From positions 1-17,268 of the forward strand of contig JALUEE010000026.1 of NCBI GenBank assembly GCA_027053075.1: 17,268 bases of DNA. Direction: 5' to 3'. The notes under the pieces are model-generated. The model saw nothing but the letters and a program-made list of their open reading frames with translations, made no database searches and had not been told where the DNA came from. The number at the start of each line of letters is the position of its first letter. The stretch's first letter is position 1. The position numbers were made by a program, and so were the translations under genes. Shown here piece by piece: positions 1,612 to 17,268 of the stretch. The DNA comes from a candidate division WOR-3 bacterium. Lineage in GTDB: Bacteria > Hydrothermota > Hydrothermia > B15-G9 > WFZT01.

Positions 1612-4600
1612 TCATAGATTTGATAATATTTTTTTAAACTCCACAAATTCTTGAATGATTGGGGCATTTTTATAGTACTCGTCTATATCTTCCAATCTTT
1701 CTCCTCGTTTCTCAAGATTTTCAATAAGACCGGTAAATTTATCCCTTATTTCGGCTGCTTTTTCTTTATTACCCATGGCAAGGTAGGATTTCATCATATA
1801 AAAGTAGGCAAGAGATTCAAAGAAAAGGGAATTTGAAATCTTTAAGAGTGATAGAAGCTCCTGAAATGTTTTAAGAGCATCTTGGTATTTTTTATTGTCA
1901 AAAAGACATTTCCCGAAGTGCAATAGTTGTCTCTGTGCGTAGAAAAAGTAACCATTACTCTCAGAAAATTCGATGAGGTCCTGGAAACGTTTTTTGCATT
2001 TCTCTATATCACCTGCCCGATTGCTTAGAAGAGCCGTGTACTCAAGATAGTGCATCTTCGGAAACGCAAGGGTTTGAATGATAGATTTGTAAGTGACATA
2101 GAGGTCTTTATCATCGATGGTGACATGTCCGAGCATCAAGTCATTTATTGCAGTTATTATCTCTCTGATGCAGTTGCAGATAGGGAAGGGTTTTGTGTAC
2201 TCACTCGAAATTTTGAGGACCTTTTTATTCATTCCGTAGTTTTCAAGGTCAAAAAGGATGGTTGAGATAATATTGAATACAAATGGGGCGGGCTCTCGTA
2301 ATGGCTGGGGATTTTTGAAAGCCTTTAAAAGATAGTCGTTTATTATTTTAAGTGAGCCAAATGGATTGAGAAATATTAAATCGAGCAGGGCCCTTATGGC
2401 GTAAGCTTTTAATTTAATCGGGAAACTTTCGCATCTGTTAAGATATTTCTGTAGCTCTGTAATTGTCTTAAAGGCTTTTGTATAGGATCCACCAACGATG
2501 TAAATGAGGGCCATGTAAAGGTTAACCTCGAGAAAATGCAGAGAATTTGGAGCGCTGGAGAGTCTTGATTGAGCATTCTCAAGCCTGAAGATAGCATTTT
2601 TCATATCCCCTGTGAAGAAGTAGCACATAGCCTCTTCCTTCAGAATCAGTCCTATCAAAGTGGGATCAAGCAGTTTCTTGGCCTCGTCCATGGCCTGAGA
2701 AAGCATGGCAAAGGCAAGCTCGAGGTCCCCCCTAAGTCTCTTTATCTTCGCACCATAGATAACTGCAAGTATCTTCTGTCTGATTCTCGAACGGCTTTTT
2801 GCAATTCTATAGCCTTCTACGAAATATTTCTCGGCTTTGTCCAGCTTTGCCATTTGCAGGTAAAATACTCCTGTGACAAGATAGATGTCTATGAGTTCAT
2901 CATAGGCATGGGTGGATGAAAGGAGTTTGGTGGCCTTTTTTATTTCCTCTGTAGCGGCAGAGAGCTTGCCAAGGTCAATGTAAATTCTGGCTTTGAAGAG
3001 ATGGGCCCTTCCTTCCTCAAGGATATTCCTTGCCTTCTGCGCCTCAGTAATGGCAAGGTGAAAGACTTTATCAGCCTCTGAGAGATTACCAGCTGCATAC
3101 TTTATTTCAGCAAGCAAATTTATGTATCTTGCTCTGTCCGTTTGATCCACATTTTGACTCAAAATTTCTCTTACGTCTCTCTCTGCTTCGGCAAACCTTG
3201 AAAGCACGATATTTATTCTTGCCTTGTTTTCGAGGATTCTCAGGTAAATGGATTCGTGTACAGGCAGAGCTTTTTCCGTCTCTTTCAGCTTGTTGTAGGC
3301 ATCCAGAGCCATGTCGTAGAATTTGAGCGCGTCCTTAATCGAGCCGTTAACTTCTGCCCACTGGCCAGAGGAGATCAAATAGTACAGTGCTTTGTCATAG
3401 ATTCCGGCTCTAAGATAGTTGAGGGCCACGTCTGGCATCAGGTCCTTCTCACCGTATAACATCTTCTCCTCGAGGACAGATGCAGAGGTCTGGTAAATCT
3501 TTCTCAAAGCCTCGTCTGTCTGCCTTTGATGTAGTTTTTTCCTGACAAAATTTTTAATACTTTCGTTAATAAACTGATAAACTACCTCGCCCTCTTCGGT
3601 TTCTTTTAGTTTCCTTATAAAGCCGTTCTGGGCAGATAGCTCGAGATTCTTTTTAACGTATGAATCTATATCGTCGCCGCTGTATTTAAAAGCTGAATTT
3701 TTCTTGATAACCTTGACAATATCACTTGATGAAAAGGTTGTCCCGAGGGTTGAGGCAATGCCAAGAATGAATAGGATATCATCACTTATTTTCTGAATTT
3801 TCCTTTCAAAAATCTTCTCAATCTCCGGTGTGAATTTAACATCCCCTTTGCCTTCCCAGACCCATTTGCCACCTTTCTTCCGAAGTTCGCCATTTTCAAT
3901 CAGTGATTTTAGCAATTCTTTCATAAATAGCGGGATGGCGGATGTCTCTTTTATTACAAATTCGATCAGTTCATCCGGAATTGATGTGGTAAGGAGGAAA
4001 TCCTCTATGTATTCACGAACCTTTTCGCGAGTAAAGGGCTTGAGATCAATGATATTTAGCAGATTAGATTTTTCAAAATAATCAAATGTGCTCTCTACTT
4101 TTTCCTTTTCCGAAAGGGATTCGGTTGAGTAGGTCCCAACGAATAAAATTCTGGCCCACTTGTATGTTGCTACAAGATGCGTGAGTACAGTGTAAGAGAG
4201 GTCATCAATATACTCGAGGTCGTCAATTGCTATAACAATGGTGCCCGCCTCTACAAACATTTCAACCAGTTTCTCAAGCCAGCCTATAAGGCGGAGTTTC
4301 CGTTCATCTTCATCGAGTTCTTCTTCTGGAATGGCGTTTTTTGCAAGCTGGGGGATGGTCTCGGCGATGACAGGAGGTACCTCGTCAATACTGCTTAAAA
4401 GCTCCAGGTTTGTGGGGTCCTGAATGAAATCGCGAATTAAACCAACTATTGCACTCGCTGTCGCTGGTGTCTGGGTGGCTGAGAGATTTGTTTTAAATAT
4501 CCAGGTATTTTTGTCACCCTGAATTTTGTTTAAAAATTCTTCAAGCAGGGTCGTTTTACCGATTCCTACAGGACCCCTTATAAAGACGATTTTTTCGACC

Positions 4601-6366
4601 CCTTTCCCTGAAACCGTCTCATAAATATCAAGCAGTGTATTGAGTTCATTCTCTCTATTTACAAATTCCGGTATGTGGTATTCCTGTCTCTCCTGGGACA
4701 GGCTTGAGAGGCAAACAACTCGAGAAGAAACGTCTCTCCTGTGAGTCCCTGCTCTTAAACTTATCTCAGTTAGCACAAATTCGAGTCTTTTTAAAACGTC
4801 TCGAAAATCACCTGCCTCTTTAGGATACTCAATAAGGCCGGCTTCAAGTTTAATTTCGTAATAATCTCCAAGAATGCTCTCTTTTTTCTCAATGACGTCC
4901 ACGAGTTGCTCGAGATATTTTTTAAGTTTGAAACACGGACTTTTATGAAGAAAAAGAAAAACATCCTGGTATAGGCGGGTGACAAATACATTCCCCTTTT
5001 CAATGTCATCCCCTAACCTGCTTTTTATCTCAAGCCCGATTGTTTGAATTACATTTGTGGCAATGTCCTCCCCATAGGATTCAATAAAACTCTGAAATCC
5101 TTCGATATTAAGGATGGCGAAGGTGAGAGTTTCATTTCTCCGCATGGCCCTTGCCATTTCTTCATTTGCGACTGAAAAGAACTGACAGGGATTCATAAAG
5201 CCAGTAACCGGGTCTTCTCCCTGGTAGTTTTTCATCCTTTTAATCAGGGGCATTCCACGGAACTTTATCGAGAGAAGGGTTTTGCATTCCTGGAGCATCT
5301 TCATAAAACTGATAAGCGATTCCCTGTCGTATCCGGTTTCTGCAGCCATGCGGAGGTAATTTATGGCCTCATCCACTTTGCCGAGTTCAAGGTACCGGTT
5401 TGCGAGGTCAACAAGATAGTGGGCGTATTCACGGGATTGAAGCTCAGGTCTTTCCTGGATCATTCTTGCAAGCACTTCGAGTGCCCTGCTGTTATTTGGG
5501 TCCTTGTCAAGGGCGTTTAAAAGACTTTGAAGGGCGTTTTTCAGGTCTCCGGACCGGTAATAGAGTTCGGCAAGTTCTGTATAGTATTTCGAAGCCTCCT
5601 CAAGGTCTCCTTTTTTCTCGAGAAGGGTTATAAGTTCCCGGTAGTCATTTATCGTGCCATTAGATTCGACGATTCTCTGTTTAAGCTCCTTAATTGCTTC
5701 GTTCAGTGTTTCTTTATCGACAGTGGAGCTTATTGCAAGCTTAACTTTTATCTTCTTATAAAATGGGCTATCTTTTGGGATTTTTTTGTAAAGTTCCTGA
5801 GCCCTGTCAATTTTTCCAAGTTGTTCGTATTTTTCGGCGATATTTATCAACAATTTTTCGTAAAAGCCAGATTTGTCTTTGAGCTTTTCTTCAACAATAC
5901 TCGTGATTATTTGAAGCATTTCTTCGTCTTTTGCGAAGTTTTTGAGAATATACTCGAGGTCGTGGTAAAGCTGTTCCTTATTGATAAAAATTTCACCTGC
6001 GCGGACTTTTTCCACATATTCCCTGATCACCTCTTCAGATTCCCTGATCATTTCCTGTTTGAGGTAGAGATCGGCGAGTTTGAAATAAACGTAGCGGTCT
6101 TTTGGCATCACCCTCTTGGCTTTTTTCAGGATGGCGATGGCGTATTCGTAAAGTTCCTGACTTTCATAAATTCTTGCAGCCTCAGCATAACTTTTCAGTG
6201 CTTCATCAACTGCCCCCGATTTTGCATATAGGTCCCCAAGCATATTGTAAATAGATGCATCGTTGGGATTCTCGGCTATAACCTTTTTATATTCTTCGAT
6301 AGCGGCATTGTAATTGCCCTTTAATTCATACTGCCGCGCTTTTTTCAATATATCAGCTTTTACCAT
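1612..6366 (-). CDS. 1584-aa multidomain protein: N-terminal TPRs, degenerate GGDEF domain, STAND-class P-loop ATPase (AAA_16-like), C-terminal TPR/helical repeats
   Basis: TPR patterns at about aa 1-360. GGDEF fold from DPVTGFMN (aa 385) with RLYQDVF in place of RxGGDEF. FVNRENEL (aa 568), Walker A GPVGIGKT (aa 598), Walker B IVIAIDD (aa 710), and SAIPLF at the GxP position. MalT-like TPR helices follow. Confidence 0.85.
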   Translation of the reverse strand: MVKADILKKARQYELKGNYNAAIEEYKKVIAENPNDASIYNMLGDLYAKSGAVDEALKSYAEAARIYESQELYEYAIAILKKAKRVMPKDRYVYFKLADLYLKQEMIRESEEVIREYVEKVRAGEIFINKEQLYHDLEYILKNFAKDEEMLQIITSIVEEKLKDKSGFYEKLLINIAEKYEQLGKIDRAQELYKKIPKDSPFYKKIKVKLAISSTVDKETLNEAIKELKQRIVESNGTINDYRELITLLEKKGDLEEASKYYTELAELYYRSGDLKNALQSLLNALDKDPNNSRALEVLARMIQERPELQSREYAHYLVDLANRYLELGKVDEAINYLRMAAETGYDRESLISFMKMLQECKTLLSIKFRGMPLIKRMKNYQGEDPVTGFMNPCQFFSVANEEMARAMRRNETLTFAILNIEGFQSFIESYGEDIATNVIQTIGLEIKSRLGDDIEKGNVFVTRLYQDVFLFLHKSPCFKLKKYLEQLVDVIEKKESILGDYYEIKLEAGLIEYPKEAGDFRDVLKRLEFVLTEISLRAGTHRRDVSSRVVCLSSLSQERQEYHIPEFVNRENELNTLLDIYETVSGKGVEKIVFIRGPVGIGKTTLLEEFLNKIQGDKNTWIFKTNLSATQTPATASAIVGLIRDFIQDPTNLELLSSIDEVPPVIAETIPQLAKNAIPEEELDEDERKLRLIGWLEKLVEMFVEAGTIVIAIDDLEYIDDLSYTVLTHLVATYKWARILFVGTYSTESLSEKEKVESTFDYFEKSNLLNIIDLKPFTREKVREYIEDFLLTTSIPDELIEFVIKETSAIPLFMKELLKSLIENGELRKKGGKWVWEGKGDVKFTPEIEKIFERKIQKISDDILFILGIASTLGTTFSSSDIVKVIKKNSAFKYSGDDIDSYVKKNLELSAQNGFIRKLKETEEGEVVYQFINESIKNFVRKKLHQRQTDEALRKIYQTSASVLEEKMLYGEKDLMPDVALNYLRAGIYDKALYYLISSGQWAEVNGSIKDALKFYDMALDAYNKLKETEKALPVHESIYLRILENKARINIVLSRFAEAERDVREILSQNVDQTDRARYINLLAEIKYAAGNLSEADKVFHLAITEAQKARNILEEGRAHLFKARIYIDLGKLSAATEEIKKATKLLSSTHAYDELIDIYLVTGVFYLQMAKLDKAEKYFVEGYRIAKSRSRIRQKILAVIYGAKIKRLRGDLELAFAMLSQAMDEAKKLLDPTLIGLILKEEAMCYFFTGDMKNAIFRLENAQSRLSSAPNSLHFLEVNLYMALIYIVGGSYTKAFKTITELQKYLNRCESFPIKLKAYAIRALLDLIFLNPFGSLKIINDYLLKAFKNPQPLREPAPFVFNIISTILFDLENYGMNKKVLKISSEYTKPFPICNCIREIITAINDLMLGHVTIDDKDLYVTYKSIIQTLAFPKMHYLEYTALLSNRAGDIEKCKKRFQDLIEFSESNGYFFYAQRQLLHFGKCLFDNKKYQDALKTFQELLSLLKISNSLFFESLAYFYMMKSYLAMGNKEKAAEIRDKFTGLIENLEKRGERLEDIDEYYKNAPIIQEFVEFKKILSNL

Positions 6367-7550: not shown

Positions 7551-8258
7551 TTAAAGCCTCCCATCTAAAATTATTGGCAAAATTTCGCTAAAATTCTTTA
7601 CTTTAAAGTTTGCAAGCTGGTGAATTTCGGGTCCCACGAGTATAACTTTCATCCCCACTCTTCTGGCACCCAGGACATCATGTTTCGGTGAGTTTCCAAC
7701 GTAGATAGATTTTTCTCCTTTAACCCCTGCCTTTTTAAATGCAACCCTGAAAATTTTCGGGTTGGGCTTTCCAACACCAACCTCTTCTGATGTCGTCACT
7801 GAGTCAAAGAATTTCTCAAGGTCAAATTTTTTGAGAACTCCATAAATAAGGTCTGTGACGATATCAGAAATTATGCCGATATGGCCTTTAAACTCACTCC
7901 TCAATTTTTCTAAAGCTGGTAAAACATCTGGAAAGAGTTCCATGTATTTGACATGAAGGTCAATGTAGGTTTTGACAAAATTTTCTTTCTCCTCTTCACT
8001 TAAGGTCTTTCCAAATTTTCTGGCAAGTTTTTCGATGGAGTTTTTTAGAATTCCACTGACATCAGGCCATTTTTGCTCGGCATTTTCAATTTCAACAAGC
8101 AGGTCATGAGTTAGAAATTTGTCTATCTCTTCGTGTGATAATGGGATGCCGTAACGTTTTTTTACAAAGTCTGCGATGTGGTAGTGTGCAACTCGATCTG
8201 ATTCCTCACTTACCATAGTCCCACCAAAGTCAAAAAATATAGCCTCGAGCTCTTTCAT
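7551..8258 (-). CDS. HAD-superfamily hydrolase (subfamily IA)
   Basis: Motif I FFDFGGT, motif II GIISD, motif III GKPNPKIF, motif IV YVGNSPKHD. ATGA overlap with the upstream protease stop. Confidence 0.88.
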   Translation of the reverse strand: MKELEAIFFDFGGTMVSEESDRVAHYHIADFVKKRYGIPLSHEEIDKFLTHDLLVEIENAEQKWPDVSGILKNSIEKLARKFGKTLSEEEKENFVKTYIDLHVKYMELFPDVLPALEKLRSEFKGHIGIISDIVTDLIYGVLKKFDLEKFFDSVTTSEEVGVGKPNPKIFRVAFKKAGVKGEKSIYVGNSPKHDVLGARRVGMKVILVGPEIHQLANFKVKNFSEILPIILDGRL

Positions 8259-10771
8259 TTCACCACCGATAAAAGCCCTTTTGTAGTTGTAAAACCAGAG
8301 CGTAATAGAATTATATAGGTTCCAGGGGAAATTTTTTCAGGTAAATTCAAAACAAATTTGTTCTCCCCGATTCCTGTGCAGCCAAGACTCTTCTGTGTAA
8401 CAAGCTCTCCTCCAATAGTATAAACGTATGCTCTGATTAGACCCGTATGGAAGGACCTGTATTTGATTTTAACTGTATTTGTACCCTTTAGAGGGTTGGG
8501 ATATATAGCGATAATTCTGTCTCTATCTCCCGGAGCGGGGACATCAAGGGGCTCATGTTGGAGCAAACTAAGGGCGTTGAAAATACCATATCCGGTGAGG
8601 TTATTGGGATCAGGTAGCCCAGGAAACCTTGATGTGGTTTCGTGAACATATTGGAGAATTTTTTGTGCATTCCATGAAGGATGGGCCTCAAGAACAGCCC
8701 CAATACCACCTGCTACAATGGCTGTAGAGATAGATGTTCCTCCAATGATATACACCGTGCCATCAGTATCAGGCCAGCTTATCCTGTATGGTGCCACGAT
8801 GTCGGGTTTGATGCGCCCATCCGCTGTTGGGCCAAACCCGCAGTTGGGCTCCACACTGTCAGGAGAGACTATCCCACCAACTGATATAACATTTCGTGCG
8901 TCTGCAGGCACCACGAGGCTGGTGTCTCCTATAGTGGGATCAGGAAACGAGAAGTGCGAGACATTTCCCATAGCTGTTATAACCACCAGATTGTGTTTGT
9001 AGGCCTCTGAGGCCATTTTTGAGCTGTGGGCGAAATTTCCGGTCATAAGAGAATCTCCATAATTATCCCTGCCATTTGTGTACCGGTATCCGAGCGAACT
9101 TGAAAGGAGCTGCGCACCGTGCCTGATACTCCATTCCATAGCTTCGACCCAGAAATCCTCCTCAATTACACTCTCAAAATCATTACCGTTAGGGCCTGAG
9201 ACAACCCTTTCTGTTTTGGCAATTAAATAATCGGCACCGGGTGCACCTCCCACAATGCTCCCCTCAAGAAATCCTCCAATGATACTGAGCATTTTTGTGC
9301 CATGCTCGGTGGGGTCATAGGGATCAGGTGTTATATCCGTATCCCCCCTCTTTCTGTAAACTGTGTAAATACCGGAAGAGACAAAGTCGACAAATTCTGA
9401 ATCTATTAAAGTAACCGCTGGATTTGAAAGAGAAGTGCTCCATAGACTACCATCTGCAACGTATGCCGTATCGCCAGAGATCGAGATATTGTAAATAAAA
9501 TCCGCGTCCTTTGAGAAAATCTCCACGGGATTGGAAAGCCCGGTGGAGAATCTGTAAAACTTTACCTTTGAGCTATCAAAAACTCCGATTACTACATTCC
9601 CGTCAATCAACTCCACAGCTGGCAGAATCCCGTTTACCGTGGCGATCTCAGTATCACTGGAGGTGGCAAAATAAATCATGCTTGAATCACCAACTCCGCA
9701 TGAGACTATAAGCGTGTCATTACGCATAAGGCCGTCAAGACCCGCTGGCAAACCCTCGAAGCTGATTAGAGTATCGGGTGGAAAAAAGCTTCTACCGCCA
9801 TCTGTTGATACCCTGAGCATTAGCCCCGCAGTGGTGTCAACCCAGGCAATATAGACGCTGGACTGATTTGCAAGCACGATTGGGTTTACAGATTCATGAT
9901 TTCCAGTTGAGAGCAATACAGGTGTACTTAAATTTCCGCTCACGAGATCATAAGTTACAAATTTAACCCTGAAATTTCCCTGATACTCCTGATATGCCAC
10001 AAATGCTGTGTCGTTTCTCAGGGCAATTGAAGGAAAATTTTTCTCGGTCGCGTAACCGTCAATATGAATGGTATCCCATGATGTAACCTGACCATAGCTC
10101 AGATTGCCAACGGTAAGGCCAAGTGTCCATTTCCCATAAAGATAAGAACTCCCGATACTGTCCGTAGGTGAAATGCTGTAAATTACCACCAGATGGCTGG
10201 AATCAGAGGCAACATCAAAACTATTAATATACTGAATCAGTCCATGCCTGATCAGCGGTATTTCAGAATTAAGACCACGCAGGTAAAGGTGGTCTCCTGA
10301 ATTAAAATCATGCTTCGCAATTACTCCATGTCTTCGCCAGATGTGAGAAACTGCGGGGTGGGTAGAATCCACCCCCACGTCAAGCAGGGCTATTTTAACA
10401 CCGATGCCCACAAAACCCTTTTTGTGAACCTCGGGAATCTTTACCATTTCAAGGGAGCTTCGCGAATCTCCGTAGTCAAAATCCTCGGGTCTGTAAAGTT
10501 TTTGACCATCGATCTGGGTCTTCATCTCCGAAACAAATGAGAATGTTAACCCTTTGCTCATGCGGACGCTTAGAGGAGAGGCAAAGTATGAGCCTGCCTT
10601 TAAAATCCTTGAATCGGCCCGCATTCTGGCAAGGTAGAGATGCAGCAGGTAGTTATTCTTTACCGAATTACTACCATCAACCCAGACATTCCGATAATCG
10701 GTAAGGCTTTTTGAATTTAACCACGTAGACTGTGGCAAAAATGCAAAAAGAACCAGCAAAGAGGTAATCAT
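8255..10771 (-). CDS. Secreted subtilisin-like S8 serine peptidase with a large internal insertion and a T9SS type-A-like C-terminal domain
   Basis: Hydrophobic N-terminus. Catalytic D131 (IALLDVG), H490 (HGTKM), oxyanion N (TAMGN), GRIKPDIVAP, S680 (GTSIS) and GYG. C-terminal IYPNP...VYTIGGELV...SPGTYII...VVK. Confidence 0.88.
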   Translation of the reverse strand: MITSLLVLFAFLPQSTWLNSKSLTDYRNVWVDGSNSVKNNYLLHLYLARMRADSRILKAGSYFASPLSVRMSKGLTFSFVSEMKTQIDGQKLYRPEDFDYGDSRSSLEMVKIPEVHKKGFVGIGVKIALLDVGVDSTHPAVSHIWRRHGVIAKHDFNSGDHLYLRGLNSEIPLIRHGLIQYINSFDVASDSSHLVVIYSISPTDSIGSSYLYGKWTLGLTVGNLSYGQVTSWDTIHIDGYATEKNFPSIALRNDTAFVAYQEYQGNFRVKFVTYDLVSGNLSTPVLLSTGNHESVNPIVLANQSSVYIAWVDTTAGLMLRVSTDGGRSFFPPDTLISFEGLPAGLDGLMRNDTLIVSCGVGDSSMIYFATSSDTEIATVNGILPAVELIDGNVVIGVFDSSKVKFYRFSTGLSNPVEIFSKDADFIYNISISGDTAYVADGSLWSTSLSNPAVTLIDSEFVDFVSSGIYTVYRKRGDTDITPDPYDPTEHGTKMLSIIGGFLEGSIVGGAPGADYLIAKTERVVSGPNGNDFESVIEEDFWVEAMEWSIRHGAQLLSSSLGYRYTNGRDNYGDSLMTGNFAHSSKMASEAYKHNLVVITAMGNVSHFSFPDPTIGDTSLVVPADARNVISVGGIVSPDSVEPNCGFGPTADGRIKPDIVAPYRISWPDTDGTVYIIGGTSISTAIVAGGIGAVLEAHPSWNAQKILQYVHETTSRFPGLPDPNNLTGYGIFNALSLLQHEPLDVPAPGDRDRIIAIYPNPLKGTNTVKIKYRSFHTGLIRAYVYTIGGELVTQKSLGCTGIGENKFVLNLPEKISPGTYIILLRSGFTTTKGLLSVVK

Positions 10772-10773
10772 CG

Positions 10774-11037
10774 CTAATACTCTGAAAGCTTATTGAGGTG
10801 TTCTTCAGCGTCCTTATTCGAGGGCTCTTTGTCGATCACTTTTTTAAAGTACTCTTGAGCCTTTTCCCTGTCGTTGATAATTTCGTACAAAATTCCGAGG
10901 TTATAGAGAGCCTCGACATTATCTGGCTCAATCTCCAGTATCCTCTTTAGAATATGCTCAGCCTTCTCGTACTGCTGGTTGACTATATAAAATTTTGCCT
11001 CCTCAAGGAGCTCTTTGACGTTAAATTCGTTATCCAT
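10774..11037 (-). CDS. Small TPR protein (about 2 repeats)
   Basis: YEKAEHILKRILEIEPDNVEALYNLGILYE...AQEYFKKVIDKEPSN matches the TPR consensus. Overlaps the ktrA stop. Confidence 0.85.
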   Translation of the reverse strand: MDNEFNVKELLEEAKFYIVNQQYEKAEHILKRILEIEPDNVEALYNLGILYEIINDREKAQEYFKKVIDKEPSNKDAEEHLNKLSEY

Positions 11038-11725
11038 TTTCCTTAAACCTTTCGATGTTTTCTGTCGAGCCTAATACTACGAGAACATCCCCTTTGAGAA
11101 TTTCCTCTGCCGGATCAGGGGCAACAAGTACTTCCTCTTTGTAGTCAATTTTGCCATCTGCATTCATCTTTGGGACTTTTCTTTTGATGGCAATAATGTA
11201 AATCCCATACTTGGAGCGGACCCCGGATTCCCGGATGCTTTTCCCTTCAAGGTCCGGTGGGGCAACTATTTCAACAATGGCGTAATCTTTTGAAAGTTCT
11301 ATAATGTCAAAAATCCTTGGCGAAACGAGACTTTCAGCGATCTTTTGCCCCATCTCACGCTCTGGGAAGACCACCCGGTCGGCCCCAATTTTTTTCAAAA
11401 TCCTTGCGTGAACATCGGAGCCGGCCTTGGAAAGTACCCTCTTTGCACCTAACTCTTTGACAAGCAGTGTGGTGAGGATTGATGATTCAATATCGCTACT
11501 GATTGCCACGATAACCCAGTCAAATTCCTGAACCCCTATGGTTTTCAAGGCCTTGTCGTTTGTTGAATCCATAATTAATGCCTGAGAGACATTTTCCTCT
11601 ATTTCGGAAACCCGCGCCTCGTTGCGATCAATGGCCAGAACTTCATGGCCGGACTCCGCAAGAGCAAGGGCCACCGAACGCCCAAATCTCCCAAGACCTA
11701 TGACGCAAAACTGTTTTTGTTCCAT
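11030..11725 (-). CDS. ktrA: Ktr/Trk potassium uptake regulatory RCK subunit
   Basis: VIGLGRFG nucleotide-binding motif, IGADRVVFPEREMG, and a C-terminal RCK_C domain. Adjacent to a KtrB-type membrane subunit. Confidence 0.9.
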   Translation of the reverse strand: MEQKQFCVIGLGRFGRSVALALAESGHEVLAIDRNEARVSEIEENVSQALIMDSTNDKALKTIGVQEFDWVIVAISSDIESSILTTLLVKELGAKRVLSKAGSDVHARILKKIGADRVVFPEREMGQKIAESLVSPRIFDIIELSKDYAIVEIVAPPDLEGKSIRESGVRSKYGIYIIAIKRKVPKMNADGKIDYKEEVLVAPDPAEEILKGDVLVVLGSTENIERFKENG

Positions 11726-11726
11726 T

Positions 11727-13076
11727 TTACCCTACGATGTATTTCCCTTCTACATGCCTAACAGGCTCAGCCTTTTTCTCTGCCAGCAATGCTACAATTG
11801 ATAAAACCCCCACTTTCCCTATCAACATGAGAGTAATAATAATCCATTTGCCCAAAATTGAAAAGTCAGCAGAGAGTGAAACATTCTGATAAATCTTGGA
11901 GCCAAGCGAAAGCCCAACGGTCCCAAATGCCGATGCGATCTCGAAAAGATAGGGGAGAAGGCCGTTTTTCTCGATACCGTGGAGTTCCGTGATGGACAGT
12001 AAAAATCCAGCCGAGAGAATAACAAGGGTCGTTATTATCAAAATAGTAACTGCCCTTTTGAGTGACTCTTCTGGAATTCTGTATCCGTGAAACACAGGCT
12101 CCTTTCTCTGAAAGTATGCCTTGATCCATGCAAGATACGCGTAAAAAGTGGTGGTCTTTATTCCACCTGCAGTTCCACCAGGTGAACCTCCGATAATCAT
12201 GAGTACGATCAAGAGAAACAGCGAGGCAGGATGGTAAAAGTTCAGGTCAATTGTGTTAAACCCCGCTGTCCTTGGAGTAACTGCCTGGAACATGGAGGCA
12301 AATATCCGCTCAATAAGATTGTAATGTCCGTACCCGTAAATTGACTCATAGATAAGGAAGAAGAGCGTTGATAAAAGGATCAAAACACCGGAGATAGAGA
12401 GTGCAGCCTTGGTGTGTAGTGAGAGCTTTTTTCTGATCTTCAGAATATATCTTTCGTAGAGCTCCATAATCACAAAGAAGCCTATTCCACCGATAAAAAT
12501 CAGAGCCATGACCGTGAGATTGACGATAGCATTTGCCCTGAAAGATACAAGACTATCAGAAAAGGTCGCAAATCCAGCATTACAGAAGGCAGAAACACTG
12601 ATGAAAATAGAGTGCAGAAATGCCCTCACCGGTCCGATACCATGCATCAGAAAGCCAATAAAAAGCAAAGCTGCCCCGAGCCCTTCCAGAAGGAACGTGA
12701 TTTTTAACACGTTTATCGCAAATTTCCAGATATTCCCTGGTGTGAGAGCAGGAAAGCTCTCTGCAGCGATGAGCCTGAGCTTCAGGCTCGAGCGTCTCCC
12801 AAGGGCAAAGATAAAAACTGTAGCAAAAGTCATGTAACCAAGACCACCAATCTGGATGAGTAAGAGGATTACCAGTTTACCAAAAAATGTGAAGAAAACG
12901 GGTGTGTCCTTTACGATTAGCCCTGTTACACATACAGCAGAGGTGGATGTGAAAATGGCATCAGTTAACCCAAGAGGACCTCTCCTTGATATGGGAAGCA
13001 GCAGGAGGAATGCCCCAACAAGAATAATCGAAAAGTACCCCAATATGAGTATTTTGACCGGTGTTAGTTTTTTCAT
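11727..13076 (-). CDS. ktrB: Ktr/TrkH-family potassium uptake membrane subunit
   Basis: Four pore loops (SAVCVTGL, SAFCNAGF, TPRTAGF, SAFGTVGLS), intramembrane loop GGSPGGTAGGIK, and C-terminal IVG. Confidence 0.92.
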   Translation of the reverse strand: MKKLTPVKILILGYFSIILVGAFLLLLPISRRGPLGLTDAIFTSTSAVCVTGLIVKDTPVFFTFFGKLVILLLIQIGGLGYMTFATVFIFALGRRSSLKLRLIAAESFPALTPGNIWKFAINVLKITFLLEGLGAALLFIGFLMHGIGPVRAFLHSIFISVSAFCNAGFATFSDSLVSFRANAIVNLTVMALIFIGGIGFFVIMELYERYILKIRKKLSLHTKAALSISGVLILLSTLFFLIYESIYGYGHYNLIERIFASMFQAVTPRTAGFNTIDLNFYHPASLFLLIVLMIIGGSPGGTAGGIKTTTFYAYLAWIKAYFQRKEPVFHGYRIPEESLKRAVTILIITTLVILSAGFLLSITELHGIEKNGLLPYLFEIASAFGTVGLSLGSKIYQNVSLSADFSILGKWIIITLMLIGKVGVLSIVALLAEKKAEPVRHVEGKYIVG

Positions 13077-13561
13077 CTAACAATAAAGACGATAACCCTC
13101 CTGGGGCCGTGTGCCCCTTTTACCAAAATTTTTTCAATGTCTGCTGTCTTTGACGGTCCAACGATAAAAGTTATGTCTGGCAAAGGATGGGGTATATTCT
13201 CAAAAAGAACGTCAAAATCGTCAAGGATGTTGGATTCCCTTAAAAGAGCGATGTGAATATCTGGCAGTAAAGATGGAAGCTTGTCTGAAGGGCTTTCTGC
13301 CAGCTCTACAAGGCCCCCAGAATAAGCTATGCCAAAATCTGCCTCACTCAATCCAGCATCCACATCTTCATAAAATTTTTCGGTGAATTCAATGTCCAAG
13401 GAAAGCTCGTTTATTAGTCCCTTAGGCCGCACGAAAACACGCTTGATACCTTCCTTTTTGAAAAACTCATTCAAATCCTCATTTAGCCTCGATCGTGAGG
13501 TGAGGTAAACCTCAACGTCGTTCCTTTTTAGCTCCTCTATGAATTTTTCCGTTCTTTCCAT
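13073..13561 (-). CDS. lutC: Lactate utilization protein C (LUD domain)
   Basis: SLLPDIHIALL and FIVGPSKTADIEKILVKGAHGP. Third gene of lutABC. Confidence 0.88.
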   Translation of the reverse strand: MERTEKFIEELKRNDVEVYLTSRSRLNEDLNEFFKKEGIKRVFVRPKGLINELSLDIEFTEKFYEDVDAGLSEADFGIAYSGGLVELAESPSDKLPSLLPDIHIALLRESNILDDFDVLFENIPHPLPDITFIVGPSKTADIEKILVKGAHGPRRVIVFIVR

Positions 13562-14922
13562 AGTTCTCTAAAAGATTTGCCCGGAAGGGGCTCTATATCT
13601 TTCCACTTTGTCCAGTTTGAGAAGACGAAAGGGAGGTGCGTAAGTTTGTCCTCTTTCTTAAAAATTCCCTGAATTTTTGATGCCAGATGGAATCCTAATT
13701 TATTTAGAACTGGTTTGGTCATCAGTTGAGACCACAGGCCAACAAGTGCCTTCTCCTCAAATTTTCCACCTGTTTGCTCTATGACCCTGCGTCTCAACTC
13801 AAGTAGAATACGCGGGATGTTAATCCTGACAGGGCATATTTCGTAGCAGGCACCGCAGAGAGTTGAAGCAAATGGGAGTTCTTTTGCGACCTCGGGGCCG
13901 AAAATAGCATAAGTCCAGATAATCCCGATTGGGCCTGAATAAACACTCCCATAGGCATGTCCACCGACAAGCTGGAAAATGGGACAAACGTTTGAGCATC
14001 CACCACATCTAATGCACATTAGAGCTTCACGTAAAACAGGGTCATTAAGCATTCTGCGACGTCCATTATCTATTAAAACAATATGGACCTCGTGGTCTTT
14101 TGAGGCTCGTGAGAAAATGTTGGTATAGACTGTCTGATGTTGTCCTGTGCTGCTCGGAGCAAGTATTTTCAAGAAGACAGGCAGGTCTTTAATCGATGGG
14201 ATCAGTTTCTCAATACCCGTAACAGCAACGTGTAAAGGGGGTAGAGTAGTGGACATGCGAGCGTTTCCTTCATTTTCGACCACCACAAAGGAGCCCGTGT
14301 CGGCAATGAGAAAATTTGCTCCGGACATCCCTGCATCCGCTTCGAAGTATTTTCCCCTCAAGTAATTCCGGGCAAATTTTGTTAATTCCTCAGGCTCCTC
14401 TGTGTATTCCATGCCCAATTTTTCATTAAACAATCTGGCAATCTCGCGTCTCGTGAGATGTATGGCCGGGGCTGTAATGTGGGATGGTTTTTGATGGGCG
14501 ATCTGGATGATAAACTCCCCGAGGTCGGTTTCATATTTCTTGATACCGTGAGCCTCAAGAAACGGGTTTATTTCAATTTCTTCCTGAGTCATTGATTTGC
14601 TTGAGACGGCCAGTTTCACGTTTCTCTCTTTAAAAATCTGCAAAATAATTTCTCTTGCCTCACGGGCATCCCCTGCCTCGTGAATCACAAAGCCGTTTTT
14701 CCTGGCATTCTCTTTAAATTTCCCAAGGTAGCCGTCGAAGTCCCGGAGTATTTCCTCTTTCGCCGCTCTTGCCCTGTCTCTTAATTCCTCAAAGTCAGGT
14801 ATCCGTGCGATGGTCTCTCGTCTTTTATCGAGGGCATGCATGGTGGCTTTCTGAACAGCCTCTACTACCGTGGGATTGGATAAAATTTTTCTTGCGTTTT
14901 CGTAGAAATTAATCTTTTTCAT
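13537..14922 (-). CDS. lutB: Lactate utilization protein B (LUD domain plus 4Fe-4S)
   Basis: SKSM..EEI, ETDLGEFIIQ, PSHITAPAIH, ENEGN, CIRCGGCSNVCP and STLCGACYEICPV. ATG at 14922 (MKKINFY), overlapping the lutA end, is preferred over the longer track start. Confidence 0.92.
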   Translation of the reverse strand: MKKINFYENARKILSNPTVVEAVQKATMHALDKRRETIARIPDFEELRDRARAAKEEILRDFDGYLGKFKENARKNGFVIHEAGDAREAREIILQIFKERNVKLAVSSKSMTQEEIEINPFLEAHGIKKYETDLGEFIIQIAHQKPSHITAPAIHLTRREIARLFNEKLGMEYTEEPEELTKFARNYLRGKYFEADAGMSGANFLIADTGSFVVVENEGNARMSTTLPPLHVAVTGIEKLIPSIKDLPVFLKILAPSSTGQHQTVYTNIFSRASKDHEVHIVLIDNGRRRMLNDPVLREALMCIRCGGCSNVCPIFQLVGGHAYGSVYSGPIGIIWTYAIFGPEVAKELPFASTLCGACYEICPVRINIPRILLELRRRVIEQTGGKFEEKALVGLWSQLMTKPVLNKLGFHLASKIQGIFKKEDKLTHLPFVFSNWTKWKDIEPLPGKSFRELWKERKNS

Positions 14923-15652
14923 CTTCCAGTCCTTCGGCAAGTATCTCAACGATATGGACAGGCTTTATCTTTAAGCCAAGCCTCGATAGCACACCACCAA
15001 TATTCATCAGGCAACTGAGGTCAGACGAGGTCACAAAATCGGCATGCGTACCCTCAATGCTCTCGGCTTTCCTTTTAGTCATGTTGTATGAAAGGTCCGG
15101 AAACTTTATGGAGAAAAGCCCCCCGAATCCGCAGCAGGTCTCTTCGAGGTCCATTGGAATAAAGTCCGCATTTTTCAAATTTTTCAAGAATTCCTTCGGT
15201 TCCCCTTTCACTCCGAGGCCACGTAGATAGTGGCACGAGGCATGATAGGTAACTTTTCCTCTGAAAGTGGATGGAATTTCTTTGACTCTTAAAACTTTTG
15301 TGAGAAATTCGACTATCTCATAAAGTTTCGGCTTTATTCTTTGTACCCTTTCGAGCGTTTTAGGTTCATCTTTGAACAGTATTTCGTAGTTTTCTCGAAT
15401 CATATGTACGCACGAGCCAGATGGTGCGACGATGAAATCAAATCCAGGGACATCATAAACATCGAGCCAGGCCCTTGCCATCTCTTTCGCATCTTTCCAG
15501 TAACCCACGTTGAAGGCAATCTGGCCGCAGCAGGAGGGTTTATCGGGTACTTCGACCTCAACACCGAAATGCTCGAGGAGCTTTACGGTATCAAATCCGA
15601 TCTTTGGCTTTATATGATCAACGAGACATGTTGGAAACAATAAAACCCTCAT
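14909..15652 (-). CDS. lutA: Lactate utilization protein A (two CCG Fe-S domains)
   Basis: LFPTCLVD, CCGQ, PSGSC, YHASCH, CCGFGGLFSIK and SCLMNIGG. Confidence 0.92.
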   Translation of the reverse strand: MRVLLFPTCLVDHIKPKIGFDTVKLLEHFGVEVEVPDKPSCCGQIAFNVGYWKDAKEMARAWLDVYDVPGFDFIVAPSGSCVHMIRENYEILFKDEPKTLERVQRIKPKLYEIVEFLTKVLRVKEIPSTFRGKVTYHASCHYLRGLGVKGEPKEFLKNLKNADFIPMDLEETCCGFGGLFSIKFPDLSYNMTKRKAESIEGTHADFVTSSDLSCLMNIGGVLSRLGLKIKPVHIVEILAEGLEDEKD

Positions 15653-15710: not shown

Positions 15711-15794
15711 GAATCCGTATACCATCTTTAAGGTATCTACCACCCTCTCCGCGTACGCATTCCCCACTTACCCCATGCTCGCCCTTGTACCATT
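15711..15794 (-). pseudogene. Degraded fragment of an IS3-family DDE transposase (integrase core)
   Basis: Manual translation gives NGTRASMG*VGNAYAERVVDTLKMVYGF, which matches the I-S-M...N-A-x-A-E-R...L-K-x-E-Y segment carrying the third DDE residue. It has an in-frame stop and is not in the ORF track. Confidence 0.55.
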
Positions 15795-16135
15795 TCAAAA
15801 TGATTATACTTTCGTCTCTTTATTAATGCCAAAGTCAATCAGGCTTTGCCTACTGGGGATTTCTCTGTTTTTCTCTATGGCTCTGCCTCTTGATGGAAAT
15901 TTTTTGCCTTAAGTTTTTTTGATGATATTTGTTTTTTATTTTCTCACCAGGCCCTTGAGTGAAGATAGCTTAAGCATGCAACCAAAAACTACCACTTCCC
16001 GCATAAATACTTGTGAGGAGAGGATTCAGGTGGGGCCCACATCTGAAAATTTCAATCAAAAAATCCATCAATCCCCCTCTCCCGCTTTCGGGAGAGGGTC
16101 GGGGTGAGGGTTACATCTTAAATTTTTTATTTTTC

Positions 16136-16366
16136 AAGCGGAAAGCCCCCTCCCTCAATCCCTCCCCCACAGGCAAAGCCTGTGGGGGAGGGAGGTGTTC
16201 CTGGAATTGTGTGGAGAGGTATGGTGAGGGCTACATATGAAAATTACTTTCATTTAAAAGTCTAAAAAGAATCTTTGGAAGCCACTTTTTGTCCAGTTTT
16301 TGCTACCTCACACGAAAAAATAACTCTCCTCTCCCCGCGTAAATTCGTGCGGGGAGAGGCCGGGTG
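16136..16366 (+). repeat. About 230-bp direct repeat, copy 1 (units C0-D0-A1)
   Basis: Aligns with 16917-17143 from AAGCGGAA to GGTG. Confidence 0.92.
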
Positions 16367-16547
16367 AGGGGCCACATCTGAAAATATTAATCAAAAATCA
16401 ACCAATCTCCCTCTCCCGCTTTGCGGGAGAGGGGTGGGGTGAGGGCCAACATCTAAAAATTTTCAATCAAAAATCATCAATCTCCCTATCAACATATTCC
16501 AAGATTTGACGCTGAATATATCCTGAAAAACTTCACCGGTGGGAAAT

Positions 16548-16883
16548 TTAATTATCTTTATTTAGTTCGTACCATATCCTCTGGAGAACCGCTTCTGACT
16601 CTTTTAGAACTTCATTGTCCCAGAATCGTAAGACTGTGTAACCTCTTGACTTCAAATATTCATCTCTTTTACGGTCATACTCATTGTTTATGTGCTGAGA
16701 GCCATCTACTTCGATAATTAGCTTTTTAGAAGGGCAAATAAAGTCAACTATGTAATTTCCGATAGGTACCTGTCTTTTGAATTTGAAGCCCAGTTGTTTT
16801 CCACGTAATTTACTCCAGAGACGACGTTCAGCATCAGTCATATTTTTTCTGAGCTGTCTTGCCCTCTCAGTGAGTTTTCGCAT
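16548..16883 (-). CDS. DUF559 / Vsr-like endonuclease domain protein (YcjD-like), stand-alone, 111 aa
   Basis: Hallmark motifs RARQLRKNMTDAERRLW, FKRQVPIGNYIVDF, KLIIEVDGSQH and YDRKRDEYL...GYTVLRFW. Confidence 0.92.
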   Translation of the reverse strand: MRKLTERARQLRKNMTDAERRLWSKLRGKQLGFKFKRQVPIGNYIVDFICPSKKLIIEVDGSQHINNEYDRKRDEYLKSRGYTVLRFWDNEVLKESEAVLQRIWYELNKDN

Positions 16884-16889
16884 GGTAAG

Positions 16890-16918
16890 ATTATATTGAA
16901 AGGTGAGAATTGTGTTAA
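16890..16918 (-). promoter_or_regulatory. Putative leaderless promoter of the DUF559 gene
   Basis: TTAACA-17 nt-TATAAT-6 nt-ATG, with no Shine-Dalgarno. The -35 touches the edge of direct-repeat copy 2. Confidence 0.6.
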
Positions 16919-17143
16919 GCGGAATGCCCCCTCCCTCACCCTCCCCCGCGCGAAGCGCGGGGGAGGGTGGTTTTCCTGGAATTGCGGAGAGAGGTAAAGT
17001 GAGGGCTACATATGAAAATTACTTTCATTTAAAAGTCTAAAAAAGAATCTTTGGAAGCCACTTTTTGTCCAGTTTTTGCTCCCTTACACGCAAAATAAAT
17101 TTTCCTCTCCCCGCGTAAATTCTATGCGGGGAGAGGTCAGGTG
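16917..17143 (+). repeat. About 230-bp direct repeat, copy 2 (units C1-D1-A2), cut by an IS at its 3' end
   Basis: Aligns with 16136-16366. Similarity stops abruptly after GAGAGGTCAGGTG. Confidence 0.92.
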
Positions 17144-17268
17144 TCCCGTCCTGATATATGTTTACAGTACAACTCCCCACGTGGATGATTATAAAACCCT
17201 GAAAGGAGGTCACTTATATGCCTGATAACAACAAACATTATACCGAAGCCTTCAAACTCAAGGTTATT
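17142..17268 (+). mobile_element. Left end of an IS3-family (possibly IS481-like) insertion sequence, partial
   Basis: Begins TGTCCCGTCCTGATATATGTTTACA (5'-TG/TGT terminus) exactly where repeat homology breaks, followed by an RBS and an OrfA-like start. Confidence 0.7.
17218..17268 (+). CDS. Transposase OrfA N-terminus (MPDNNKHYTEAFKLKVI...), partial
   Basis: AGGAGGT at 17204-17210. Y-T/S-E-A-F-K-L-K-V is the typical start of IS3-type HTH domains. Confidence 0.7.
   Translation, partial: MPDNNKHYTEAFKLKVI

Follow-up and report, generated by a model that had tools for sequence, protein, structure and literature searches.

Why does a single small nuclease gene lie between inverted copies of a hairpin repeat that is itself dispersed through the genome? 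BoxC repeats were described in the 1990s and occur in over 260 genomes, and to our knowledge their origin and spread are unexplained. DUF559 is a large protein family for which we know of no assigned function. Both meet at the end of the DNA stretch analysed here (the window; 17,268 nucleotides), which comes from a candidate division WOR-3 bacterium with a genome (G000) of 2.44 Mb at 95% completeness. An array of hairpin-plus-G-tail units around one ORF of 111 amino acids closes the window.

The first-pass annotation had read this array as a higher-order repeat of four unit types, A to D, and upon re-location of the units in the sequence all of its coordinates and spacings held. A0 and A1 are spaced by 336 bp, B0 and C0 enclose 35 nt (16111-16145), and B1 and C1, with their G-tails pointing inward, enclose 481 nt (16446-16926). 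The array consists of the following features.

15992..16035, plus strand: A0, decayed long-loop hairpin plus G-tail unit (folding z 0.02)
16075..16110, plus strand: B0, BoxC/TMECO unit fitting the published consensus
16111..16145: B0-C0 spacer, AT-rich, 35 nt, gene-less doublet
16146..16193, minus strand: C0, inverted hairpin plus G-tail unit, tail towards B0
16203..16230, plus strand: D0, tail-only unit, begins the block duplicated at 16959-17122
16328..16370, plus strand: A1, long-loop hairpin plus G-tail unit
16409..16445, plus strand: B1, BoxC/TMECO unit located 3' of the DUF559 gene, tail towards the gene
16446..16490, plus strand: A-to-B-type spacer with a truncated B stem, left over from another unit
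16548..16883, minus strand: putative DUF559 (YcjD-type, Vsr/EDxHD-fold) nuclease gene, 111 aa
16890..16918, minus strand: predicted sigma70 promoter, 11/12 by consensus match only
16927..16969, minus strand: C1, inverted hairpin plus G-tail unit, located 43 nt upstream of the ATG with its tail towards the gene
16978..17005, plus strand: D1, tail-only unit, duplicate of D0
17104..17141, plus strand: A2, hairpin with its G-tail cut at 17141 by the end of an IS
17142..17268, plus strand: left end of a presumably IS3-like element, eight copies, outside the system

Of seven units tested for folding as DNA, six form hairpins with z values of -2.7 to -7.5, and the seventh is the decayed A0. A sharp homology boundary near 15984 marks the left end of an A-B-C composite that recurs genome-wide. 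B1, among the two commonest exact B variants (three copies), is no clean terminus, since it is followed at 16446-16490 by a second spacer of the A-to-B type and a B head that is truncated. The two copies of the D-spacer-A block are identical at 149 of 163 positions, and their spacer has one other similar spacer genome-wide. C0 and C1 are different hairpin subtypes. The locus reads as a local tandem duplication, one copy with the gene and the other with a generic spacer. In sequencing run X1, which may be the source sample of the assembly, a 531-nt unitig spans B1, the gene and C1 at a depth of 53, compared to 46 for neighbouring single-copy DNA, and supports the assembly at this point.

By its motifs, the element at 17142-17268 is presumably IS3-like. 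That this element targets the repeat was considered and rejected, as only two of its eight copies adjoin A-type hairpins (C26, C32); in some copies (C71, C37) a different element has interrupted the sequence. Upstream of the array lie a remnant of another repeated element at 15712-15796, which has four similar copies at other sites, and, at 15840-15859, a decayed arm of the C type. The remaining window encodes, on the minus strand at 1612-6366, a STAND-like signalling protein of 1584 aa that combines TPR repeats with a GGDEF-like domain, an AAA ATPase and a MalT-like TPR region, a subtilase at 8255-10771 and, on the minus strand at 11030-15652, lactate-utilisation-like lutABC (CCG and LUD domains by Pfam) followed by genes that by eye resemble Trk/Ktr potassium uptake genes.

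The likeness to boxC proposed in the first-pass annotation is borne out by B0 and B1, which fit the TMECO consensus of Holder et al. 2015 (PMC4666352), consisting of a C-rich stem, a loop, a G-rich stem, a short loop and a second G-rich tract; the A, C and D units are looser variants of it. The source genome holds 33 matches to this consensus and 107 copies by a looser pattern, and fuzzy tail matches number 163 versus 2-3 in three shuffles. Shuffles and the controls given below reject a chance origin. The repeat is dispersed and intergenic (2 of 248 unit hits lie inside long ORFs), occurs with inverted pairs of two subtypes and recurs as the A-B-C composite of approximately 210 bp. A search of Rfam gave no gathering-level match, so a reading as structured RNA was rejected. 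The repeat is the BoxC/PIT/TMECO triplex motif, with which it agrees in consensus, intergenic location and inverted pairs of two subtypes; unlike the elements described by Holder et al., the units here build an A-B-C-D mosaic and bracket a nuclease (PMC4666352). For the E. coli units, the same study reports intrastrand triplex formation in vitro, no stable triplex by in vivo footprinting, and instability of TM loci. Its available text names no partner gene (ycjD and endonuclease do not occur in it) and describes no mobility genes nearby.

The ORF at 16548-16883 matches DUF559 (PF04480) over its whole length, with an E value of 7e-42 and 142 bits against a cut-off of 20.6, and is the only DUF559 gene found in the source genome. 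E. coli YcjD and the Neisseria protein 3hrl belong to the same family (PRK09767, E 6e-32, below the equivalog cut-off); we know of no function for either. The Vsr-like nuclease fold suggested at first agrees with profile matches to 3hrl (E 4e-41) and to the homing endonuclease I-Bth0305I (3r3p, E 7e-5), which point to such a fold at the level of sequence. In an alignment of 33 rows, E19, E58, D60 and H64 are invariant and D47 and D70 at least 90% conserved. Aligned with 3r3p, whose D196, N208, H213 and D222 (numbering of PMC3239194) would correspond to D47, D60, about H64 and D70, the residues E19, D47, D60, H64 and D70 map to the predicted Vsr-type active site (PMC3239194, PMC12907096), and the catalytic residues appear intact. 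The protein has neither a separate DNA-binding domain nor strand-transfer chemistry. The cassette is under purifying selection: dN/dS was 0-0.29 in 11 of 14 pairs tried, after exclusion of one pair without synonymous change, of L044/L046 (1.47) and of an E. coli pair, the latter two giving values in ungapped comparison that suggest a frame slip.

That the pairing of DUF559 genes with BoxC repeats is real and general we regard as virtually certain. In the source genome, one of 2008 ORFs is bracketed by inward-facing units within 150 nt, and this is the DUF559 gene; within 300 nt there are three. The enrichment near DUF559 genes anticipated in the first-pass annotation was found among GTDB loci from many phyla (the best 80 of 595 confirmed, 77 of them with enough flank): 68 of the 77 have a unit within 300 bp and 46 have units on both sides, with tails inward in 30 of these 46. 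Unit density is 3.4-3.5 per kb beside the gene, compared to 0.03-0.2 per kb beyond 1 kb. Neighbouring ORFs of the same loci carry a unit in 23 of 269 cases and units on both sides in none, and shuffled sequences gave no units. Metagenome loci (80 of 346, many of them close kin) behave alike, 56 of 66 having a unit and 40 of 66 having units on both sides. In Xanthomonadaceae all of 20 stand-alone DUF559 loci, taken from the top of the match list, have a unit as opposed to none of 29 Vsr loci. The cassette, which recurs across phyla, comprises hairpin-tail, gene and tail-hairpin and measures 393-589 bp from stem to stem in 27 clean examples. Repeat-encoded peptides are found at the ends of 40 of the 120 top homologs, and some cassettes lie in frame inside larger proteins. 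The open-access papers covered by our search, a set that does not include the original BoxC/PIT papers, hold no link between a DUF559 gene and the BoxC repeat.

Two observations concern individual loci. In four Xanthomonadaceae loci (L346, L357, L358, L359) DUF559 with repeat-encoded peptides on both sides lies in frame within larger proteins, two of which resemble DNA methyltransferases by eye. A Novosphingobium genome (G065) has six DUF559 paralogs (L191-L196), five of them with flanking repeats that differ in subtype and the remaining one, L196, without a repeat.

A genome-wide correlation of repeat and gene, as proposed earlier, was found in two families and in the class of the window, but repeats persist in some gene-less genomes. 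Among 150 scored Xanthomonadaceae, at least five copies are present in 65 of 85 genomes with the gene versus 6 of 65 without, and at least 25 copies in 38 of 85 versus 1 of 65; these counts are the same when the unpublished genome G258 is omitted. Among 119 scored Legionellaceae, at least five copies are found in 19 of 55 genomes with the gene versus 2 of 64 without, and 17 of the 55 gene-bearing genomes do not hold the searched subtype. In the window's class, four congeners have neither gene nor repeat. DUF559 in G032 and G034 is flanked by another subtype, of which these genomes hold 20 and 14 copies (7-8 or fewer of them right beside the gene); they hold none of the G000 subtype, and G000 holds none of theirs. 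The fourth DUF559 match in the class is an 862-aa fusion without repeat. Copies without the gene include 96 in the sister genome G004, which is 89% complete and in which DUF559 was not found, and 61 in one gene-less Xanthomonadaceae genome.

Subtype also follows the protein. On a tree of 89 proteins, 70 of them labelled and 56 of 86 forks open, repeat subtype changes 21 times versus a mean of 31 and a minimum of 26 upon shuffling, and one group of seven proteins from several phyla has a common subtype. Hitch-hiking alone would make linked repeats track the protein tree. Since kin are not independent and linked DNA travels together, the counts demonstrate association rather than recognition.

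E. coli ycjD is, as the first-pass annotation stated, a DUF559 gene, and a TMECO lies approximately 170 bp downstream of it. A degenerate unit covers its stop codon, and the gene is flanked on one side only. E. coli K-12 has one ycjD gene and 23 TMECO, another ycjD-positive strain has 13, a ycjD-negative strain has one, and E. coli O157 has 11 without DUF559. The gene is present in 3378 of 5426 E. coli genomes and occupies the place of the eef efflux operon of other lineages (eef: PMC12817139). At individual loci the fabI-sapF interval contains either ycjD with BoxC at its 3' side or the eef efflux operon (L005:5041-5830, L178, L179, L180), and in one strain ycjD is divergent and its stop is covered by an intact BoxC.

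The DUF559 nuclease is likely the cognate enzyme of the BoxC/triplex repeats bracketing it in the mosaic array. In the most likely mechanism, which we consider slightly more probable than not and of which we infer all steps, the enzyme would nick or break folded repeats in a structure-directed way, and host recombination would follow. The repeat would fold as single-stranded DNA into a hairpin with a third strand. The enzyme would recognise this folded shape, as Vsr does distorted DNA, and introduce a nick or break at that point. Repair by host recombination from another copy of the repeat would then copy, convert and shuffle units, yield local tandem duplications like the one at the window locus and now and then move the cassette as a whole. 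B0-C0 and other gene-less inverted doublets would be non-autonomous products and would persist after the gene is gone. More tentatively, as a possibility we place just short of probable, DUF559 and BoxC may constitute an undescribed selfish element, in which a minimal Vsr-fold nuclease recognises a shape, the intrastrand triplex, rather than a sequence, cuts at it and spreads via host recombination without a transposase.

The more specific claim of the first-pass annotation, that B0-C0 is the gene-less derivative of B1-gene-C1, could not be established. The source genome contains 14 generic B-C doublets with this spacing, B0-C0 among them, C0 and C1 differ in subtype, and no empty orthologous site was found in the relatives compared. 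In the sister genome G004 the locus is rearranged: upstream of lutA it has a different neighbour, whose G000 ortholog lies on another contig beside a MITE end. The relatives G001 and G005 are only about 69% identical in this comparison. Excision joints listed from sequencing runs are short-sided and fit other repeat copies. With fourteen empty doublets versus one filled site, filling is rare.

The main rival, which we hold to be unlikely, assigns the nuclease a domesticated caretaker role, in which it resolves folded repeats that stall replication while the repeats are spread as cargo of MITEs and IS elements and by gene conversion. It accords with the single DUF559 copy in the source genome, with purifying selection and with the gene's rarity among plasmid records (32 of 72,556) and phage records (2 of 50,697). 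Moreover, conventional transposases demonstrably move some of these repeats, namely in a MITE of the source genome and in an IS5-family element of Legionellaceae. The MITE is abundant, with sizes of approximately 122-127, 296 and 350 bp (e.g. C27:18245-18369, C29:12345-12694), and has short TIRs, target duplications of about 9 bp and a related hairpin; in the 350-bp form a second element of about 230 bp is inserted in the hairpin. Duplications of 8-10 bp flank 26 of 46 MITE end pairs versus 2 of 2000 controls, four sites are polymorphic between G000 and G004, and the doubly tailed (E-type) triplex-like hairpin of the MITE has 70 of its 156 strand hits inside TIR pairs. In the search for an autonomous partner, the one long TIR pair proved to contain an inserted IS110, and no transposase lies behind a TIR among the ORF starts listed. 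This IS110 transposase gene (PF01548 and PF02371) is inserted in the MITE hairpin at G000:C14:7052-8919.

In Legionellaceae, DUF559 rides in the IS5-family element, convergent with the transposase (L204, L209, L211, L227-L230). The triplex motif is contained in both TIRs, which measure approximately 150 bp; its loop is promoter-like, and its G-tail lies at the distance of a ribosome site. TA is found at both ends, and shorter derivatives without transposase exist. The genome G166 of this family has four DUF559 copies that are 95-97% identical; since the gene lies inside the element, the transposase explains such multicopy DUF559.

Several observations speak against the caretaker role with spread by other elements. 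Few A, B and C units fall inside TIR pairs (8 of 162, 1 of 50 and 4 of 36), the MITE's TIR is absent from the window at up to one mismatch, and an IS5 motif was found within 1.5 kb in none of 80 GTDB loci. Flanking direct repeats are not in excess at 47 full-length or near-full A-B-C composites (from G000 and 40 of the 370 contigs of G004), leaving the composite without a target duplication. Outside the 27 clean cassettes neither direct nor extended inverted repeats are in excess, which sets the cassette apart from DDE transposition. A caretaker, furthermore, would have no need of a position between inverted copies, which in many cases run into its start and stop.

An improbable explanation is that the repeats act only as cis parts (promoter, ribosome site, terminator or recombination handles) and that the target of the enzyme is unrelated to them. 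Many loci do have an upstream G-tail at ribosome-site distance and a downstream unit overlapping the stop. At the window locus, the promoter proposed in the first-pass annotation was recovered as a sigma70-like consensus match of 11/12 at 16918-16890, ending 6 nt before the ATG, with its predicted -35 box at a conserved extension of the C1 tail; the mRNA starting from it would be leaderless. On its own this match is weak, since the scan gave 2 sites versus 1.5 expected. In earlier work summarised in PMC4666352, PIT elements had neither promoter nor terminator activity, and a cis function leaves unexplained why dispersed copy number and subtype follow the gene genome-wide. Least probable is that DUF559 serves very-short-patch T:G repair for a distant cytosine methylase, as proposed for Caulobacter VsrA, with the repeats being incidental. 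In its favour, VsrA contains a DUF559 domain whose active-site spacing is similar, and it triggers a DNA-damage response in the absence of the ScmA methylase (PMC12907096). Against it, VsrA is 177 aa long and possibly a member of a different subfamily, a search for PF00145 methylases in G000 (95% complete), G004, G032 and G034 found none, a C5-methylase motif lies near 21 of 29 Vsr loci versus none of 80 and none of 20 DUF559 loci, and the repeat association is far above chance.

Pairing BoxC with DUF559 makes both puzzles testable in E. coli K-12. If the reading as a selfish element is true, it would supply the missing cause of the abundance of BoxC and of the reported instability of its sites, and thousands of gene-less repeats would have been spread in this way across bacterial phyla. 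Specificity of a nuclease for a triplex or hairpin-tail structure would be new, and such an enzyme might serve as a probe for non-B DNA. The pairing may also offer a second reading of VsrA-dependent DNA damage in Caulobacter. To this the window locus contributes two doublets within one duplicated unit, one filled and one empty, together with controls at genome level, subtype matching and the qualification that part of the repeat family is moved by transposases.

Among known systems, REP/RAYT shares with the window locus a single-copy nuclease gene flanked by a dispersed palindrome, gene-less inverted doublets and mosaic arrays (PMC3733652), as well as subtype-specific pairing and repeats that outlast gene loss (Di Nocera et al. 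2013, PMC3733652). The likeness drawn in the first-pass annotation holds for this arrangement but not for membership. It is analogy only, since fold and chemistry differ and the Y1 transposase was not found in the genome (HUH-Y1, PF01797; control 6 of 14). The enzyme of the window has a predicted Vsr/PD-(D/E)XK hydrolytic fold instead of HUH-Y1, and its repeat has a G-rich third-strand tail instead of the GTAG tetranucleotide (PMC3733652); PMC2267715 is cited beside these REP and fold comparisons.

I-Bth0305I has a homologous catalytic domain with equivalent acidic and histidine residues (PDB 3r3p; PMC3239194) and a selfish role via break and recombination (PMC3239194). The window protein differs in having no N-terminal NUMOD/HTH region, no intron or intein and a D-to-H loop that is shorter by one residue. 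Vsr is of the same fold group (group 58 of PMC3424549, with 1cw0, 3hrl and 3r3p), but Vsr genes are not repeat-flanked (0 of 29), and no C5 methylase was found linked to the window gene or elsewhere in its genome. As the catalytic residues appear intact and no cytosine methylase is linked, Vsr-type repair is unlikely here. VsrA is the only DUF559 protein for which we found genetic evidence that it damages DNA in vivo (PMC12907096). The features of IS elements and MITEs of the DDE type were found only in the Legionellaceae form of the cassette and not at the window locus. Judged by its sequence, the window system would belong neither to RAYT/REP, homing endonucleases or very-short-patch repair nor to IS elements, yet in its arrangement it is RAYT/REP-like.
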